Shown here: piece after piece, positions 26,989 to 33,983 of the stretch
Layout: every line of letters starts with the position of its first letter
Position numbering within the stretch: the stretch's first letter is position 1
DNA from: Candidatus Culexmicrobium cathedralense
GTDB lineage: Archaea > Thermoproteota > Methanomethylicia > Culexarchaeales > Culexmicrobiaceae
Assembly (NCBI GenBank): GCA_025061115.1
Contig: JANZKC010000005.1
Span: 1 to 35,655 of the forward strand
DNA length: 35,655 bases
Direction of reading: 5' to 3'
Made by a program: the position numbers and the translations under genes
Notes under the pieces: generated by a model
Told to the model about the DNA's origin: nothing
Databases searched by the model: none
The model's input: the letters and a program-made list of their open reading frames with translations, nothing else

Positions 26989-27154
26989 TTCCGCTTCTAA
27001 CTTCTCCACGGTCCAATATAGACTTTCCTTTAAGCCCAAGATCCCACATGTGCCCGCAGAACCTGCATTTAGCATAGTAATGTAGGGAACCCTCAATAAT
27101 CTCAACATTTGACCTTCCGCAAACAGGGCACCTAAGCTTCACTTCTCCCACCAT
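26957..27154 (-). CDS. Zn-ribbon protein
   Basis: CPVCG...CRFCGH. Confidence 0.7.
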   Translation of the reverse strand: MVGEVKLRCPVCGRSNVEIIEGSLHYYAKCRFCGHMWDLGLKGKSILDRGEVRSGNGEKILCFKM

Positions 27155-27861
27155 GCGGGCCTAATTGTTTTCCTGTAAACCGTTACCCCGTATGATTCAA
27201 GAAGCTCTATTAGCTTAAGCGTCTGCTCCAGAGACGGCTCGGGCAACTTGTTGTTGTAGTTGTCGTATCCTACATAGACGAATTCAGGGTTTATTTCAGC
27301 TATTTCCTTGGAGAACTTGTAAACGTCTCTTATCTGTATTATTGGCTCAACTGAAACCATTAGCCTTACGTTCCCATTAACCATTCTAATCCACTTCATT
27401 GCGTTAATTCTCCTTGAAGGAGAAGGAGCATTGCTTATACCGTATGCCCAATATACTTTGTCGAAGTCCGTTTCTACGGTAGCACCTAAAATAACGTTAT
27501 CCATGTGTGAAAGCTCATCCAAGAACTCAAAGTACCTAGCAGGGTTCTTTGTTAGGAAAAGAAAAGTTGTTTCAGGGAATTTCCTAATATGGCTGATAAC
27601 CGTTTCAATCCAGAAGTCTTTAACCCACCAGCCCCACATATCACCCATGTCACTGACGAAGATAAATTCACCTGGTTTAAACTTTTTCCTAAGCTCTTGA
27701 TGATGAAACTTAGGCTTAAAACCTTCACTATACTTCCTAGTGTTTTTAAGCCTAGTCTCAACAAGTTTCCTAGCCCAACAGTATTTACATAAATGTAGGC
27801 AACCGGTAATAACATTCCATGTCTTTGTCACTTTATGGAACATTCTTGACCTCATTGCCAT
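27139..27861 (-). CDS. Phage Gp37/Gp68 (DUF5131) radical-SAM-like protein
   Basis: TWNVITGCxxxCxYCWA, IFVSDMGD, FLTKNP, VSVEPI. Confidence 0.85.
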   Translation of the reverse strand: MAMRSRMFHKVTKTWNVITGCLHLCKYCWARKLVETRLKNTRKYSEGFKPKFHHQELRKKFKPGEFIFVSDMGDMWGWWVKDFWIETVISHIRKFPETTFLFLTKNPARYFEFLDELSHMDNVILGATVETDFDKVYWAYGISNAPSPSRRINAMKWIRMVNGNVRLMVSVEPIIQIRDVYKFSKEIAEINPEFVYVGYDNYNNKLPEPSLEQTLKLIELLESYGVTVYRKTIRPAWWEK

Positions 27862-30499: not shown

Positions 30500-31042
30500 G
30501 TGAAAAGAAGAAACCCAGAACAAGAAGAGGCAATAATAGAGGTAACGTTAATACCGGAAACATGGATTATAGCGCCACTTGTAACAGAGCAGCAACTTAG
30601 AAGATGGTATGAGAAAGGATGGATTAACGATGAAGACCTCCACCTGGACCGTGCATTTCCCAGATCAGCTGATGGTAGGCCGATAATTTTCAAGCTTTGG
30701 CTGCTGGCTCCTATGAAGCGTGCATGTGATAAGCTAGGGTATTCCAGGAGCGTGCTTAACTTCTCAATTATTGACGACCACGGGTTCCCTGTCGAATATG
30801 TTGAAATACCTGACCAGCCTTTAAAATACCGTAGAGTCATATTGGGGCCTAAGCAGTCAACGGAGTATTTCGAATACATTGACAGCACCTATGAGTTAAA
30901 GTTCAGGGTTAAAACCAGATACCCCAAGGAGTTCTGCGAAATCCTCAACGCAGCTGGAAGAATAGGTTTAATGGCGAGATCAGGTAAGGGATTCGGAAAG
31001 TTCAGAGTTTCCTTCAAGGTGGAAACACTTAAAAACCAATAA
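30500..31042 (+). CDS. Stand-alone RAMP-superfamily protein (Cas7/Csm3-like)
   Basis: N-terminal strand IEVTLIPETWIIA; PRSADGRPII..WLLAPMKRA (compare Csm3 PxIPGSSLKG); FEYI...ELKFRV; C-terminal Gly-rich loop GLMARSGKGFGKF; GGAGGTGA RBS. Confidence 0.75.
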   Translation: MKRRNPEQEEAIIEVTLIPETWIIAPLVTEQQLRRWYEKGWINDEDLHLDRAFPRSADGRPIIFKLWLLAPMKRACDKLGYSRSVLNFSIIDDHGFPVEYVEIPDQPLKYRRVILGPKQSTEYFEYIDSTYELKFRVKTRYPKEFCEILNAAGRIGLMARSGKGFGKFRVSFKVETLKNQ

Positions 31043-31074
31043 CCCCTTTTTTCCCCCATACGTGTAGGGAATGT

Positions 31075-31093
31075 ATCCCCTTCCCGAGGGGAT
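31075..31093. other. GC-rich hairpin ATCCCCT-TCCCG-AGGGGAT bordering the periodic array
   Basis: 7-bp perfect stem. Confidence 0.65.
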
Positions 31094-31099
31094 GAACCC

Positions 31100-31418
31100 C
31101 AACGCACAATATCAACACAGTATTTGGCAATTTTCATTTAATATTTCGCAATTTGCATCACGTATCTAACATCACCCATCATAAAATGATAACACTTCAT
31201 CTCGCAACCACCATACTTAATTCATAATTAGCAACAGTAACAGGCAGATTCCAACCAACAACTAACACCCACCATTCACAGATTAAAACGCACAAATATT
31301 AACCGACAATACTAACCAACCATATTTAAAGGCACAGCAATAATTCACAATCTGACAAATACCAACTCTCAATTACAACCATGAAAAGAACAACCCGCAA
31401 CCTCAAAAACCAAATATA
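31100..31418. ncRNA. Non-coding 7-nt periodic array (H-A-N5, about 45 units); candidate guide RNA for the adjacent RAMP
   Basis: A at position 2 in 20/20 units from 31100 and 20/20 units from 31279. Position 1 is C in about half the units and never G. No ORF of 60 aa or more covers most of it. Confidence 0.7.
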
Positions 31419-31419
31419 A

Positions 31420-31680
31420 TTATTCCTCCTTCCTCTCATAATCCATACATGCCGGATCAGTTTCCAAAACACAGTTAAACCTGTAATACGGACATTCCGG
31501 TGTTAAAAACTTCCTGCATGAACCACAGCATTTAAACTTCATTCTCTCGCTTCTAGGTAGACTCCTCCAAACCCATATTGTTTTAAACTTCTCATCTAAG
31601 GCCTTAGGAAGCTCCTTTTCCAAATCCTTCAAAACATCGTAAATTATTTGCCAGAAGAAATCAACATCATCCTTAGACAT
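31420..31680 (-). CDS. Small Cys-rich protein
   Basis: CCGSC...C...C...ACMDYE; similar to the C-terminal Cys domain of 32415-33983. Confidence 0.7.
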   Translation of the reverse strand: MSKDDVDFFWQIIYDVLKDLEKELPKALDEKFKTIWVWRSLPRSERMKFKCCGSCRKFLTPECPYYRFNCVLETDPACMDYERKEE

Positions 31681-32415
31681 TTAGATCACCTCCTCAAGGG
31701 TTTTCTGCCTTAAAATATCCCTAGCGTAGATTCTCCTATTAGCCACGAAGAAGGCAGATCCTTTACTCTTCATCTTGCTTTCAAGCTCAACGAATCTGCG
31801 GAAGAAATCAGGGAACCGGGCCCTTAAAACCATAAGCTCCTTCTCACTCATGAAAACACCGCAGCAGCATGTCTCCTTTACACCGATCCTATACCATGGA
31901 GGATAGGGTAAACCATGCTCCTCAATATATTTCTCCACCTGTTCATCAGACCAGTCGATAATGGGGCAATAACCCCATGCAAGAGCGTCCCTCTTAAATA
32001 TTATTTGAGGTAGATTGGCTCGTCTAGGAGACTCGCTACGCCTTAACCCTAAAACCTCTGCTTTAGATCCTTTAAACCTCTTAACATACTGTATTATCGG
32101 TTTGAGTTTTAAATGGTAGCAACACCACCTCCTAGTTTTCTTAGGGAAACCATACTTCAAAACCATGTCTTCAAAACTTATTTCCGGCCTTAAAACCACC
32201 AGATCCCATCCAAGACTCTTAGCAACCCTTCTAACATATTCTTCAACACCGGGAAGCATAATAGTAGTGTCAACGTGTAAAACCTTAATCTCGAGGTCTA
32301 GTCCCCTAGTATCCTCTATGAAATAATGCGTAGCAACCAAACTATCCTTGCCACCGCTGAAACATGGAAAAGCATACTTAATCCTATACTTCACAACAAA
32401 ATCCCTAGGCCTCAC
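31681..32415 (-). CDS. PAPS reductase family (PP-loop) protein
   Basis: FSGGKDS, VDT, RWCCYHLKLKP, GLRRSESPRR, PIIDWS, C-terminal Cys cluster. Confidence 0.9.
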   Translation of the reverse strand: MRPRDFVVKYRIKYAFPCFSGGKDSLVATHYFIEDTRGLDLEIKVLHVDTTIMLPGVEEYVRRVAKSLGWDLVVLRPEISFEDMVLKYGFPKKTRRWCCYHLKLKPIIQYVKRFKGSKAEVLGLRRSESPRRANLPQIIFKRDALAWGYCPIIDWSDEQVEKYIEEHGLPYPPWYRIGVKETCCCGVFMSEKELMVLRARFPDFFRRFVELESKMKSKGSAFFVANRRIYARDILRQKTLEEVI

Positions 32416-33983
32416 TATTCTTCACCTTTAGGTTCGAAGTCTTTGCATGCTTTGGTCAGGTTCATTTCCATTTCAGACACTAGGTTGTGGCCTTTAAGAC
32501 AAGTGTATGTTCTTTCCTCATGGTCGAAGACTAGGTGTTTGCAGTTAAGGCAGCACCTGTAGTTGGAGGAAACAACGTAGACAGGTGTGTGAGACCCTTT
32601 CTTCCATGTTCTAGGCCAAACCCTTGCCTCTCCTTTGCGGTCGAGCTCCCAAACAGCTCTCACAACCTCCCCGTAGGTTGCTGTTTTAGAGGGGAAGCTT
32701 CTTGCAAGGCTTCTGAGCCTTATCTTCCCCGCTGCTTCAATCTTGTTCCTTACTTTTTCCAGTATTTTGAAGAACCTTTCCTCCCTAGGGGAAGCAGCCA
32801 TGTCAGGCACTTGACCCCAGCTTGTCGATACCGTGTCGATTAACATGTCGGCAATCAGAGTACCGACATCTCCACTTGTCGGCACCCCCGTATCGACAGG
32901 AGGTATCGACACCGTACCGACAACTATATCGACACCTCTCACACCAATAGTTTTCAAGAACTCCAGAACATCAGGGTAACATGAGAAAAAGTTGGAGATG
33001 TCGGTACTCTCACCATATAAGAACTGGTTTACCAGTGATGGGTTCTCCAGTAGCTTATTTAGAGAGATAATGGTGTGTCTGGAGTGCGGAAACCGTATCG
33101 ACATGTCGACAGGTTCTCTTATTTCAGCTAATTTGGAAGCAGCCTCATCAACCAAGTAGGCTGCCATCAGCTTAACCCAGTACTCGGCCGCCATCCTTGC
33201 AACCGCAGGGTCCCCTGTTCTCTCATATATTTTCCTCTGAACGTAGGACCCTATTTTTGTCTCGTAGTTCCAGTCCAGGTGAACCAGGAAAGCCCACCTG
33301 CTTAGAGCAGCCGATGTCCTCATAAGCTCCGCTAGTGCTTTCGCCCCCTCGGCTGTTATCGGCCAAGCTGCGAACGGAAGGGTTTTCCCGAAGTTCAGGA
33401 ACAGGATCCTTCTTTTCAAGGCGGGCCAGAGGCTGAATATTCCTGAGAAGTCATCGGGGGTTCCTAGGAAAAGAGCTGAAACATAGTATTGCTTGGGTGG
33501 AACGTAGACTGTTCTTTCAACCTTCCTTCCTTTCTCAACCCTTCCAACGCTTATTTCTTCGAGGTTGTAGAGTTTAAGCGCGATCATGTTACCCCATTCG
33601 CTCATGTAGCCTCTTCTCTGAGCGATCTTCAGTATTTCACCTATCTCGTAAACAACGTATATTCCCCATTTTTTCTCCTCAATTTTCTCCGCAACAGACT
33701 GGGGGGATCCGTGGATTATCGTCGGCAACAGCATGGAAGGGATTTCGGCAACCCATGACTTTGCGGAGCCGGTTTCACCTATCAGGCCCAGCATTCCGTT
33801 TCCGAAGTGGACGGGCCTAGGGTTAATGTAGACTTTTCCAATAGTGTTTAAAACAATGGAACCCAGGATTTTAAGTTCGCTAAGCCTTTTCCTTGCAACG
33901 TCGGGGCTGTAGTCTTCGAAAAACCGAATCCACTTCTCCATCCATCCTCCGGGAAGGAAAGGATCCAGGTTTAGCTGGGGCAA
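32415..33983 (-). CDS. P-loop (AAA+/MCM-like) ATPase with winged helix and Cys domain; putative replication helicase/initiator
   Basis: LIGETGSAKS (MCM-type Walker A variant), YVVYEIG Walker B-like, ALKRRIL arginine finger-like; C-terminal wHTH-like region and CCLNC. Confidence 0.6.
   Translation of the reverse strand: MPQLNLDPFLPGGWMEKWIRFFEDYSPDVARKRLSELKILGSIVLNTIGKVYINPRPVHFGNGMLGLIGETGSAKSWVAEIPSMLLPTIIHGSPQSVAEKIEEKKWGIYVVYEIGEILKIAQRRGYMSEWGNMIALKLYNLEEISVGRVEKGRKVERTVYVPPKQYYVSALFLGTPDDFSGIFSLWPALKRRILFLNFGKTLPFAAWPITAEGAKALAELMRTSAALSRWAFLVHLDWNYETKIGSYVQRKIYERTGDPAVARMAAEYWVKLMAAYLVDEAASKLAEIREPVDMSIRFPHSRHTIISLNKLLENPSLVNQFLYGESTDISNFFSCYPDVLEFLKTIGVRGVDIVVGTVSIPPVDTGVPTSGDVGTLIADMLIDTVSTSWGQVPDMAASPREERFFKILEKVRNKIEAAGKIRLRSLARSFPSKTATYGEVVRAVWELDRKGEARVWPRTWKKGSHTPVYVVSSNYRCCLNCKHLVFDHEERTYTCLKGHNLVSEMEMNLTKACKDFEPKGEE
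32823..33111. repeat. Iteron-like GTAYCGACA cluster with 18-bp inverted repeat; candidate replication origin
   Basis: About 12 copies in both orientations; AGAGTACCGACATCTCCA at 32857-32874 and its reverse complement at 32993-33010. Confidence 0.7.

Follow-up and report, generated by a model that had tools for sequence, protein, structure and literature searches.

What occupies the gap between two convergent open reading frames (ORFs) on contig C5 of the archaeon Candidatus Culexmicrobium cathedralense, where a preliminary description had reported hidden heptamer phasing in apparently random DNA? This 35,655-bp contig, one of the 25 making up the 1.98-Mb assembly, was analysed over its whole length and is referred to below as the window. 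The gap separates a 180-aa ORF, which ends at position 31042 of the plus strand, from an 86-aa ORF of the minus strand ending at 31420, and a phased tract fills it. We found that this tract is a real phased element, not random intergenic DNA. Sequence comparisons indicate that it is probably the body of a non-coding RNA gene, which forms a two-part module with the upstream gene of a solo RAMP protein (Table 1).

The tract consists of 45 heptamers, exactly those read in the preliminary description, and all of them have A as their second base (20/20 from 31100, 5/5 from 31245, 20/20 from 31279). Period-7 A runs were no longer than 18 in 20,000 mononucleotide shuffles, and a run of 20, present twice in the real tract, was reached neither there nor in 5,000 dinucleotide shuffles. 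At other periods between 2 and 14 the longest A runs were 4–8, with 11 at period 14. In the whole assembly, nine period-7 runs of a single base with at least 12 units were detected; runs of 20 were found at this locus only, and the remaining seven (12–17 units) were located in A-rich, coding-like sequence. No ORF of 40 aa or more was present on the plus strand within the tract. Identity between units at positions 3–7 (hereafter N5) was 0.287, compared with 0.283 expected from composition, and, in agreement with the preliminary description, the tract is therefore not a decayed tandem repeat. The two 20-unit blocks were also not significantly alike (global score 3; mean of shuffles −4.9, standard deviation 5.1, maximum 10). 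The G-poor character of the plus strand was evident as well, with only 24 G among the 325 bases of 31096–31420. Position 1 was represented by C in 26 units, A in 15 and T in 4, and never by G, which gives the unit HA-N5 (H is A, C or T). Since G accounts for about 7% of the region, this absence, also pointed out earlier, is only marginal in the window alone; relatives support it, with G at position 1 in 1% of 1,550 pooled units, although these were picked with a score favouring C/A at positions 1–2.

Of the 55 related loci revealed by an alignment search, 52 are in metagenome contigs and three in species genomes, namely a Desulfurococcales metagenome-assembled genome (MAG), a bin bearing the label Aerophobetes and a Nanopusillus MAG. 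In many of them period-7 A runs were located directly 3' of the homologous gene and on its strand, and no comparable T runs were found. The numbers of consecutive phased units reached 85 in locus L039 (A in 85 of 85, C in 84 of 85), 82 in L042 (82/82), 69 in L057 (69/69), 62 in L041, 41 in L014 and 38 + 23 in L012. A chain score allowing for register slips was calculated for 49 rows (related loci and the window) with at least 150 nt of downstream sequence, seven more loci being too short. A row passed if its score was more than 1.5 times the larger of the values for 20 shuffles and for the reverse strand, a threshold that was fixed after the scores were seen. Of the 49 rows, which include three duplicate pairs and close kin, 36 have the tract downstream of the gene and in its orientation, and the score was weak in five (L006, L038, L040, L052, L053). 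Chain scores were 18–169, as against never more than 11.5 on the reverse strand. The tie between tract and RAMP gene, proposed earlier for the window, is thus a recurrent property of the homologues. Since arrays occur in most deep clades of a 39-protein tree, the link between gene and tract looks ancestral. The unit signature differs by clade: CA characterises the L039 group, HA that of the window and AA that of L018, L019 and L024. The proteins of the latter group have RCWPR where the others have RAFPR; this pairing is only a lead because it represents one evolutionary event.

Apart from the RAMP gene, ORF clustering of 54 loci revealed no family common beyond close relatives, and no Cas5, Cas6, Cas10 or Cas11 partner. 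No cas genes neighbour the RAMP gene in the window or in the 55 related loci. The surroundings are those of archaeal mobile elements, with genes for Sulfolobus turreted icosahedral virus (STIV) B116-like proteins, MCM/AAA proteins, integrase, and TraG/VirD4 together with ParA. In L024 a gene for a TnpB/Cas12f-like protein with a Cas12f1-like TNB domain (L024:1–972) lies directly upstream of the RAMP gene, and the hairpin and array are about 1 kb farther downstream than usual.

The 180-aa protein had no Pfam or PHROG matches, and 46 homologues were found. Its AlphaFold2 (AF2) model, obtained with a 32-row alignment, had a predicted local distance difference test score (pLDDT) of 91.5 and a predicted template modelling score (pTM) of 0.84. 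The best Foldseek matches in the PDB were type VII Cas7, Cmr4 and Csm3 (E from 7e-8 to 1e-4); there were 87 matches at E ≤ 1e-3, and among the matches listed nearly all were Cas7, Csm3 and Cmr4. The independent VIA all-against-all aligner likewise gave Z 10.2 for Csm3 (the best match, root-mean-square deviation 2.9 over 145 residues), 10.0 for Cmr4 and 10.0 for a second Csm3. The protein is therefore a RAMP, in agreement with the preliminary description. It carries a C-terminal glycine-rich motif, IGLMARSGKGFGKF, and a nearly invariant HLDRAFPR motif. In close relatives (L007, L008, P0002) a 13-aa insertion is located directly after the HLD motif, and contigs from public runs have 45 nt instead of 6 at this insertion site (window 30649–30656).

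At the sequence level the family is isolated. Its profile gave only two chance-level matches among the sequences of solved structures and only 45 clusters (E ≤ 0.001) among 1.84 billion representatives, and tblastn with three members found nothing in 50,697 phage records; therefore, there is no detectable sequence link to a large family. Neither single-protein nor alignment queries found related loci in viral contigs, and of 62 genomes of the host's class only this one has the gene. Among viral structures (BFVD), the top matches to the model were phage RAMP-like proteins, including A0A8S5R426 (annotated as RAMP superfamily); another match, with 22% identity (E 6.5e-5), was a protein of 166 aa from Los Azufres archaeal virus 2. 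The nearest Atlas clusters were 94%–96% viral.

When four copies of the protein were modelled together, the median score was 0.48, compared with 0.00 for the best control. In the calibration of the method, 20 of 30 solved homo-pairs and 1 of 23 single chains attained this mark. The runs shared at least 75% of contacts, with a partner pLDDT of 81–83, and the predicted interface is head-to-tail and asymmetric: residues 18–22, 108–109, 128–130 and 151–169 meet residues 29–39, 54–66 and 89–100. This result may reflect likeness to Cas7 filaments because such filaments are among the solved structures. Both fold and interface bear on the idea that the RAMP is a Cas6-like endoribonuclease cutting at every CA to release 7-nt products. 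Some RAMPs are metal-independent RNases and a fixed dinucleotide constitutes the phase mark, but the fold is closer to the Cas7 type (Z 10) than to Cas6 (Z 5.0–5.6), random 7-mers have no evident use, and head-to-tail self-association would suit a backbone subunit. We consider this explanation extremely improbable.

Almost all loci with an array have an A/T box and a hairpin in the stretch that separates the stop codon from the first unit. In related loci the boxes, located at a similar distance, read CTTAAATAA or TTTAAA. The hairpin has a kink-turn (K-turn) layout in many lineages, consisting of a stem, a 3-nt bulge (GAU), GA, an inner hairpin or loop, GA and the stem again. A strict K-turn descriptor was satisfied by six loci (L016, L017, L030, L031, L044, L045). 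The relaxed one was found in 29 of 32 loci, and is weak on its own because 665 of 3,200 shuffles also match. In at least 17 loci the first unit follows the motif after 0–1 nt, and a fourth C-stem pair, not demanded by the descriptor, is complementary in 14 of 17, the stem sequences being diverse. An alignment of five lineage variants revealed compensatory double changes in 6 of 13 pairs, with one U.G pair kept in 5 of 5. The structure of the leader is thus conserved. In some loci it is repeated within the tract, with four occurrences in L044 and two in each of L031, L025, L005 and L045, and the CA phase restarts after each copy, which points to an architecture of one or more cassettes, each composed of a hairpin and a phased segment. 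In L044 the recurring hairpins are 27–34 nt long with differing stems, and the phased segments between them are 136–249 nt.

Closer inspection of L044:2000–2864 showed segments of 249, 136, 208 and 146 nt, with variable stems and conserved flanks GCTTGATGA...TGAAAGC. The 3' flank resembles what we take to be the ATTGAAAG end of archaeal CRISPR repeats. The host itself has CRISPR arrays on contigs C1 (about 285–343 kb) and C4 (166729–167737) whose repeat ends in ATTGAAAG. We considered whether the leader mimics this repeat of the host and rejected the idea, as the sequences are not similar. Comparison of the 83 host inter-repeat segments with contig C5 gave, at best, a 14-nt chance match.

Comparison of closely related arrays showed which part of the unit is maintained. 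Between L039 and L057, substitutions at heptamer positions 1 to 7 numbered 1, 0, 19, 21, 15, 9 and 18, and the indels were 21, 7, 56, 14, 9+5 and 7 nt; other pairs behave alike. The window differs from its close relatives by indels of 7, 14 and 21 nt. In contigs of four public DNA runs compared with the window we found a 14-nt insertion after 31169 and, in two of the runs, 63 nt in place of 6 at 31236–31243; none of the substitutions listed falls on a phased A, with 70 further differences outside this list. As predicted, relatives thus vary within N5 only and keep the phase mark unchanged. Since substitutions fall in N5 and indels are multiples of 7, the CA mark and the 7-nt frame are under strong selection. 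The suggestion that register slips mark boundaries between separate guides was not supported: the best-kept arrays have no slips in 62–85 units, and close relatives still carry sequence at the slip site of the window (31236–31243). In other lineages the real boundaries are the recurring hairpins.

A precedent for a RAMP paired with a repeat RNA is the Viral Interference Programmable Repeat (VIPR), which is described, in the accessible part of the report (bioRxiv 10.64898/2026.04.26.720920), as a solo RAMP (Vipr) with a vrRNA, found in phages and archaeal viruses. According to the same part, the vrRNA comprises 9–16 tandem pentanucleotide repeats (YNNGG; variants NNNGG, YNNNG and NNNNG) and a 3' tail, an accessory gene (vap) is usual, the variable bases, read with a skip of one base, specify double-stranded DNA, and all seven VIPR types are pentanucleotide. 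As far as that description goes, the two modules have much in common. In both, a small single-domain RAMP outside CRISPR loci, mainly viral, adjoins a non-coding tract whose short tandem units combine a fixed motif with alternating hypervariable bases. The tract is capped by a conserved structured element, some members have several RNA cassettes per locus, and adaptation genes are absent. As a solo RAMP the present protein has 180 aa, a Cas7-like fold, the glycine-rich C-terminal motif and no cas neighbours. The differences from the system so described are also considerable. The unit is 7 nt (CA-N5) and not a pentanucleotide with GG(Y), with five variable bases instead of 2–4 and a fixed CA in G-poor RNA instead of GG; arrays comprise 20–118 units versus 9–16; clustering of the 54 loci revealed no conserved accessory gene; and the hosts are hydrothermal archaeal elements. 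By analogy, the module looks like a probable seven-base version of the VIPR-like principle, with a 5' hairpin and no accessory gene.

On balance, we lean towards a reading in which the RAMP coats a plus-strand non-coding RNA in 7-nt steps. The RNA would be transcribed on the plus strand from its own A/T box and would open with the conserved hairpin, K-turn-like in most lineages, which could recruit archaeal L7Ae or serve as a handle. Beyond it would follow an unstructured A/C-rich, G-poor chain of 7-nt units, on which the Cas7-like protein would polymerise head to tail, one subunit per heptamer. The first two bases (CA, or HA in the window) would then be the protein-bound register mark, leaving the five variable bases free. 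By analogy with VIPR, these could constitute a non-contiguous code for a nucleic-acid target of a competing mobile element, and this step is the least supported one. That N5 specifies targets is accordingly a possibility we regard as doubtful. Equally tentative is the full proposal of a second natural non-contiguous guide code in viruses and plasmids of hydrothermal archaea, with a minimal Cas7-like RAMP that reads in 7-nt steps, holds CA, presents five programmable bases, and is nucleated by a K-turn, perhaps with borrowed L7Ae.

Several observations weigh against this picture, and they start with the module itself. The gene was found without a detectable array in 8 of the 49 rows (L021, L022, L023, L026, L035, L037, L049, L050). 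To our knowledge, the Cas7 backbones described so far take 6 nt per subunit, not 7. The leader of the window does not conform to the standard kink-turn, having GU where GA is needed (U for A) and an extra A. None of the 18 public sequencing runs containing the stretch is recorded as RNA; therefore, transcription and strand are inferred. A/T boxes are also present downstream of arrays and would fit a minus-strand transcript, and the 5' hairpin of a plus-strand RNA is opposite in order to the 3' tail of VIPR as described in the accessible part of the preprint.

Other difficulties concern the guide function. A collinear scan of whole blocks with N5 only against the 2-Mb assembly and the loci gave 51 of 100 at best, no stretch of six N5 units reached 24 of 30 except against itself, the N5 of seven other arrays found no target in 4.4 Mb, and skip rules of 0–3 applied to the 2-Mb assembly and 55 loci yielded nothing at 32 of 40 except homologous arrays. 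These negatives say little because the database searched is small. The G fraction of N5 (0.098) is lower than that of the antisense of contig coding strands (0.186; p 0.001), which would be odd for guides to arbitrary targets. The arrays, 300–600 nt long, far exceed specificity needs. Finally, the evolutionary rate of N5 is ambiguous. N5 and four-fold synonymous divergence were 0.25–0.26 versus 0.23 in L039–L057, 0.16–0.19 versus 0.72 in L039–L041 and 0.12–0.15 versus 0.62 in L057–L041. The pairs thus disagree in relation to the synonymous rate, and on these sequence data N5 may be constrained or may be exchanged by recombination. As a separate candidate, N5 as the antisense of coding DNA was dropped because of the difference in composition noted above.

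The strand-related points suggest that the functional transcript might be the minus strand, with (N5-UG)n first and then, at the 3' end, a structured tail formed by the reverse-complemented hairpin. Such an RNA would have the VIPR-like order, since VIPR RNAs, in the accessible description, begin with the repeat tract and end in a 3' tail that is invariable; the motif fixed in them is G-rich. A/T boxes lie just past the arrays, in the flanks of L039, L042 and L057 and at 31414–31421 of the window, and A5 runs upstream of the hairpin would be T5 on the minus strand. The TATA-like box proposed earlier for this strand in the window falls, however, on the stop codon region of the 86-aa ORF. The structure of the leader is also against it: the GAUGA...GA internal loop with its 3-nt bulge, of the K-turn GA/GA type, works on the plus strand only, the U.G pair kept in 5 of 5 variants becomes a C-A mismatch, and the leader is more stable on the plus strand in 24 of 29 elements. 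The plus-strand RNA folds with −5 to −9 kcal per 100 nt in 12 of 14 arrays, versus −18 to −24 for the U/G-rich minus-strand RNA, being about three times less structured. The plus-strand array of L039 folds less well than its own shuffles (z +2.06), and the window RNA including the leader has z −0.65. The orientation of the tract is always that of the RAMP gene. Judging from these sequence features, the functional transcript is quite probably the plus strand, and a minus-strand one is improbable.

The same orientation bears on a role at the DNA level, in which phased CA/TG steps would make up a row of binding sites for the RAMP-like or another protein on DNA, double- or single-stranded, as in an origin, a partition site or a packaging signal. 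The inferred status of the transcript leaves room for it, and the tract is A/T-rich, located between convergent genes of a mobile element and, like iterons, changes in length by whole units. It is nevertheless very unlikely: in all matched solved complexes RAMP folds bind single-stranded RNA, the strand asymmetry is strong and the orientation to the gene fixed, the leader covariation with its G.U pairs is of the RNA type, 7 bp is not in phase with the DNA helix, and ORF clustering found no replication or partition gene common to the loci.

The main rival accepts the same RAMP–RNA complex, with N5 devoid of target information. The RNA would be a rail or sponge loading or sequestering a set number of RAMP subunits, for example as in type III toxin–antitoxin systems, where an unstable repeat RNA would restrain a RAMP ribonuclease, or as a decoy for host CRISPR parts. 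A protein with an adjacent repeat-RNA module that moves among unrelated mobile-element contexts would fit such a role. So would the random-looking N5 (identity as expected from composition), the absence of higher-order periodicity of units (L039 only weakly avoids similar neighbours), drift at about the synonymous rate in L039–L057, G depletion beyond any genome-copied composition, the failure to find targets in the 2-Mb assembly and the loci, and the excessive array lengths. On the other hand, changes per unit in L039–L057 are over-dispersed, with 25 unchanged units versus 14.9 expected and runs of up to eight identical units kept despite a synonymous divergence of 0.23, and in comparisons with L041 arrays are conserved better than synonymous sites. 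In addition, VIPR, the solved precedent of this architecture, is a guide system according to the accessible part of its description, and a toxic or nuclease role of the RAMP is purely hypothetical. We consider N5 without target information unlikely, and retain as the preferred reading the RAMP-coated plus-strand RNA.

The preferred reading can be compared with other known systems. The class 1 CRISPR backbones (Csm3, Cmr4, type VII Cas7, Csf2) share with the present RAMP the fold, the glycine-rich loop and the predicted head-to-tail polymerisation, and the models imply a similar periodic hold on extended RNA. Cas7 binds any spacer with a 6-nt period, whereas here the period is 7 and is written into the RNA sequence, and the protein, of about 180 aa, has a single RRM-type core. 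Unlike class 1 CRISPR, the module has no CRISPR array, other cas genes or Pfam RAMP match; the window has a single hairpin element and no near-identical repeats, and the repeat of the host arrays is unrelated. Hidden RNA periods are known from TRAP, which binds 11 (G/U)AG repeats with periods of 5–6, and from the tobacco mosaic virus (TMV) assembly origin with G at every third base; in these cases the period is the footprint of a repeating protein subunit and only the contact bases are conserved. Our tract likewise has a hidden period, and its conserved bases would be the contact bases, but the proteins are unrelated, and the tracts of TRAP and TMV are shorter and have other periods. Type III toxin–antitoxin systems (ToxIN) also have a protein gene adjoining a tandem-repeat RNA on mobile elements; their repeats are near-identical and 34–45 nt long, the RNA precedes the gene, and the toxin fold differs. 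HRAMP, a haloarchaeal Cas5+Cas7 derivative without an array (PMC8730458), is likewise a diverged RAMP module outside canonical CRISPR. It differs in having Cas5 and nucleases and in its chromosomal location in Haloarchaea, and the accessible part of that source reports no phased RNA (PMC8730458).

Table 1. Features of the RAMP gene and the phased tract in the window
Feature	Position	Strand	Basis or remark
Gene of the 180-aa solo RAMP, minimal Cas7/Csm3-like fold	30500..31042	+	Predicted structure, structural matches
TATA-like box CTTAAAAACC, candidate archaeal RNA promoter (putative)	31028..31037	+	About 30–38 nt upstream of the leader hairpin
T6 run, candidate mRNA terminator (putative)	31047..31052	+	Directly after the RAMP stop codon; comparable T runs in relatives
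Leader hairpin GGG/AAU/GU/hairpin/GAA/CCC, K-turn-like variant	31067..31099	+	Folds, covariation; directly adjoins the first heptamer at its 3' end
Phased block A, 20 heptamers HA-N5	31100..31239	+	Unit reading, shuffles
Register slip ACAGG, 5 nt	31240..31244	+	Alignment with L007, L009, L010 and L012; extra sequence there in close relatives
Phased block B, 5 heptamers CA-N5	31245..31279	+	Final base common to block C (slip −1)
Phased block C, 20 heptamers HA-N5	31279..31418	+	Terminates one base short of the stop codon with which the convergent 86-aa ORF (31420–31680, −) ends

Rfam covariance models, including those of box C/D sRNAs, had no match in the window at E ≤ 1, and in nine related loci they gave only two chance-level matches, both under the gathering score. 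DNA similarity was not detected in phage records, and in 60 related genomes there was a single chance match inside a coding gene. No tRNAs were found in the window. Upstream of the 86-aa ORF on the minus strand, a PAPS-reductase-family gene (31681–32415) is followed by a 522-aa ORF, which contains an 18-nt perfect inverted repeat (32857–32874 and 32993–33010, with 118 nt between). Other genes of the contig encode a helicase, a Cas4-like nuclease, a topoisomerase-like protein and a DUF5131 radical-SAM protein (27139–27861), and there are weak tail-fibre-like matches. We read the contig as an archaeal virus or plasmid. Genes like those of the DUF5131 radical-SAM and PAPS-reductase families, both present on this element, accompany phage DNA-modification functions.

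In seven of the loci with RAMP homologues (L021, L022, L023, L035, L037, L049, L050) no phased tract was detectable within 1.8 kb downstream of the gene; array-less loci may represent loss, relocation or the use of a different RNA. In L037 the adjoining genes of a TraG/VirD4-like coupling protein and ParA suggest a conjugative element.

VIPR is reported only in a 2026 preprint, in the accessible part of which it is presented as an ancient viral system of DNA recognition by a RAMP and a repeat RNA (bioRxiv 10.64898/2026.04.26.720920). If the guide function of the present module is true, the non-contiguous principle would be broader than one code, with a second geometry beside the 5+1 of the CRISPR backbones. 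The module would be independent in sequence of the pentanucleotide VIPR family and would also bear on the origin of the 5+1 geometry of CRISPR RNAs. With 20 to 85 or more units, its guides would surpass all known natural ones in length and information density, and it would provide a different scaffold for programmable recognition. The module is small, comprising one 180-aa protein and one RNA, and hence is directly testable. Even with an uninformative N5, it would be unusual for an assembly to have the register of its protein filament written into 600 nt of RNA.

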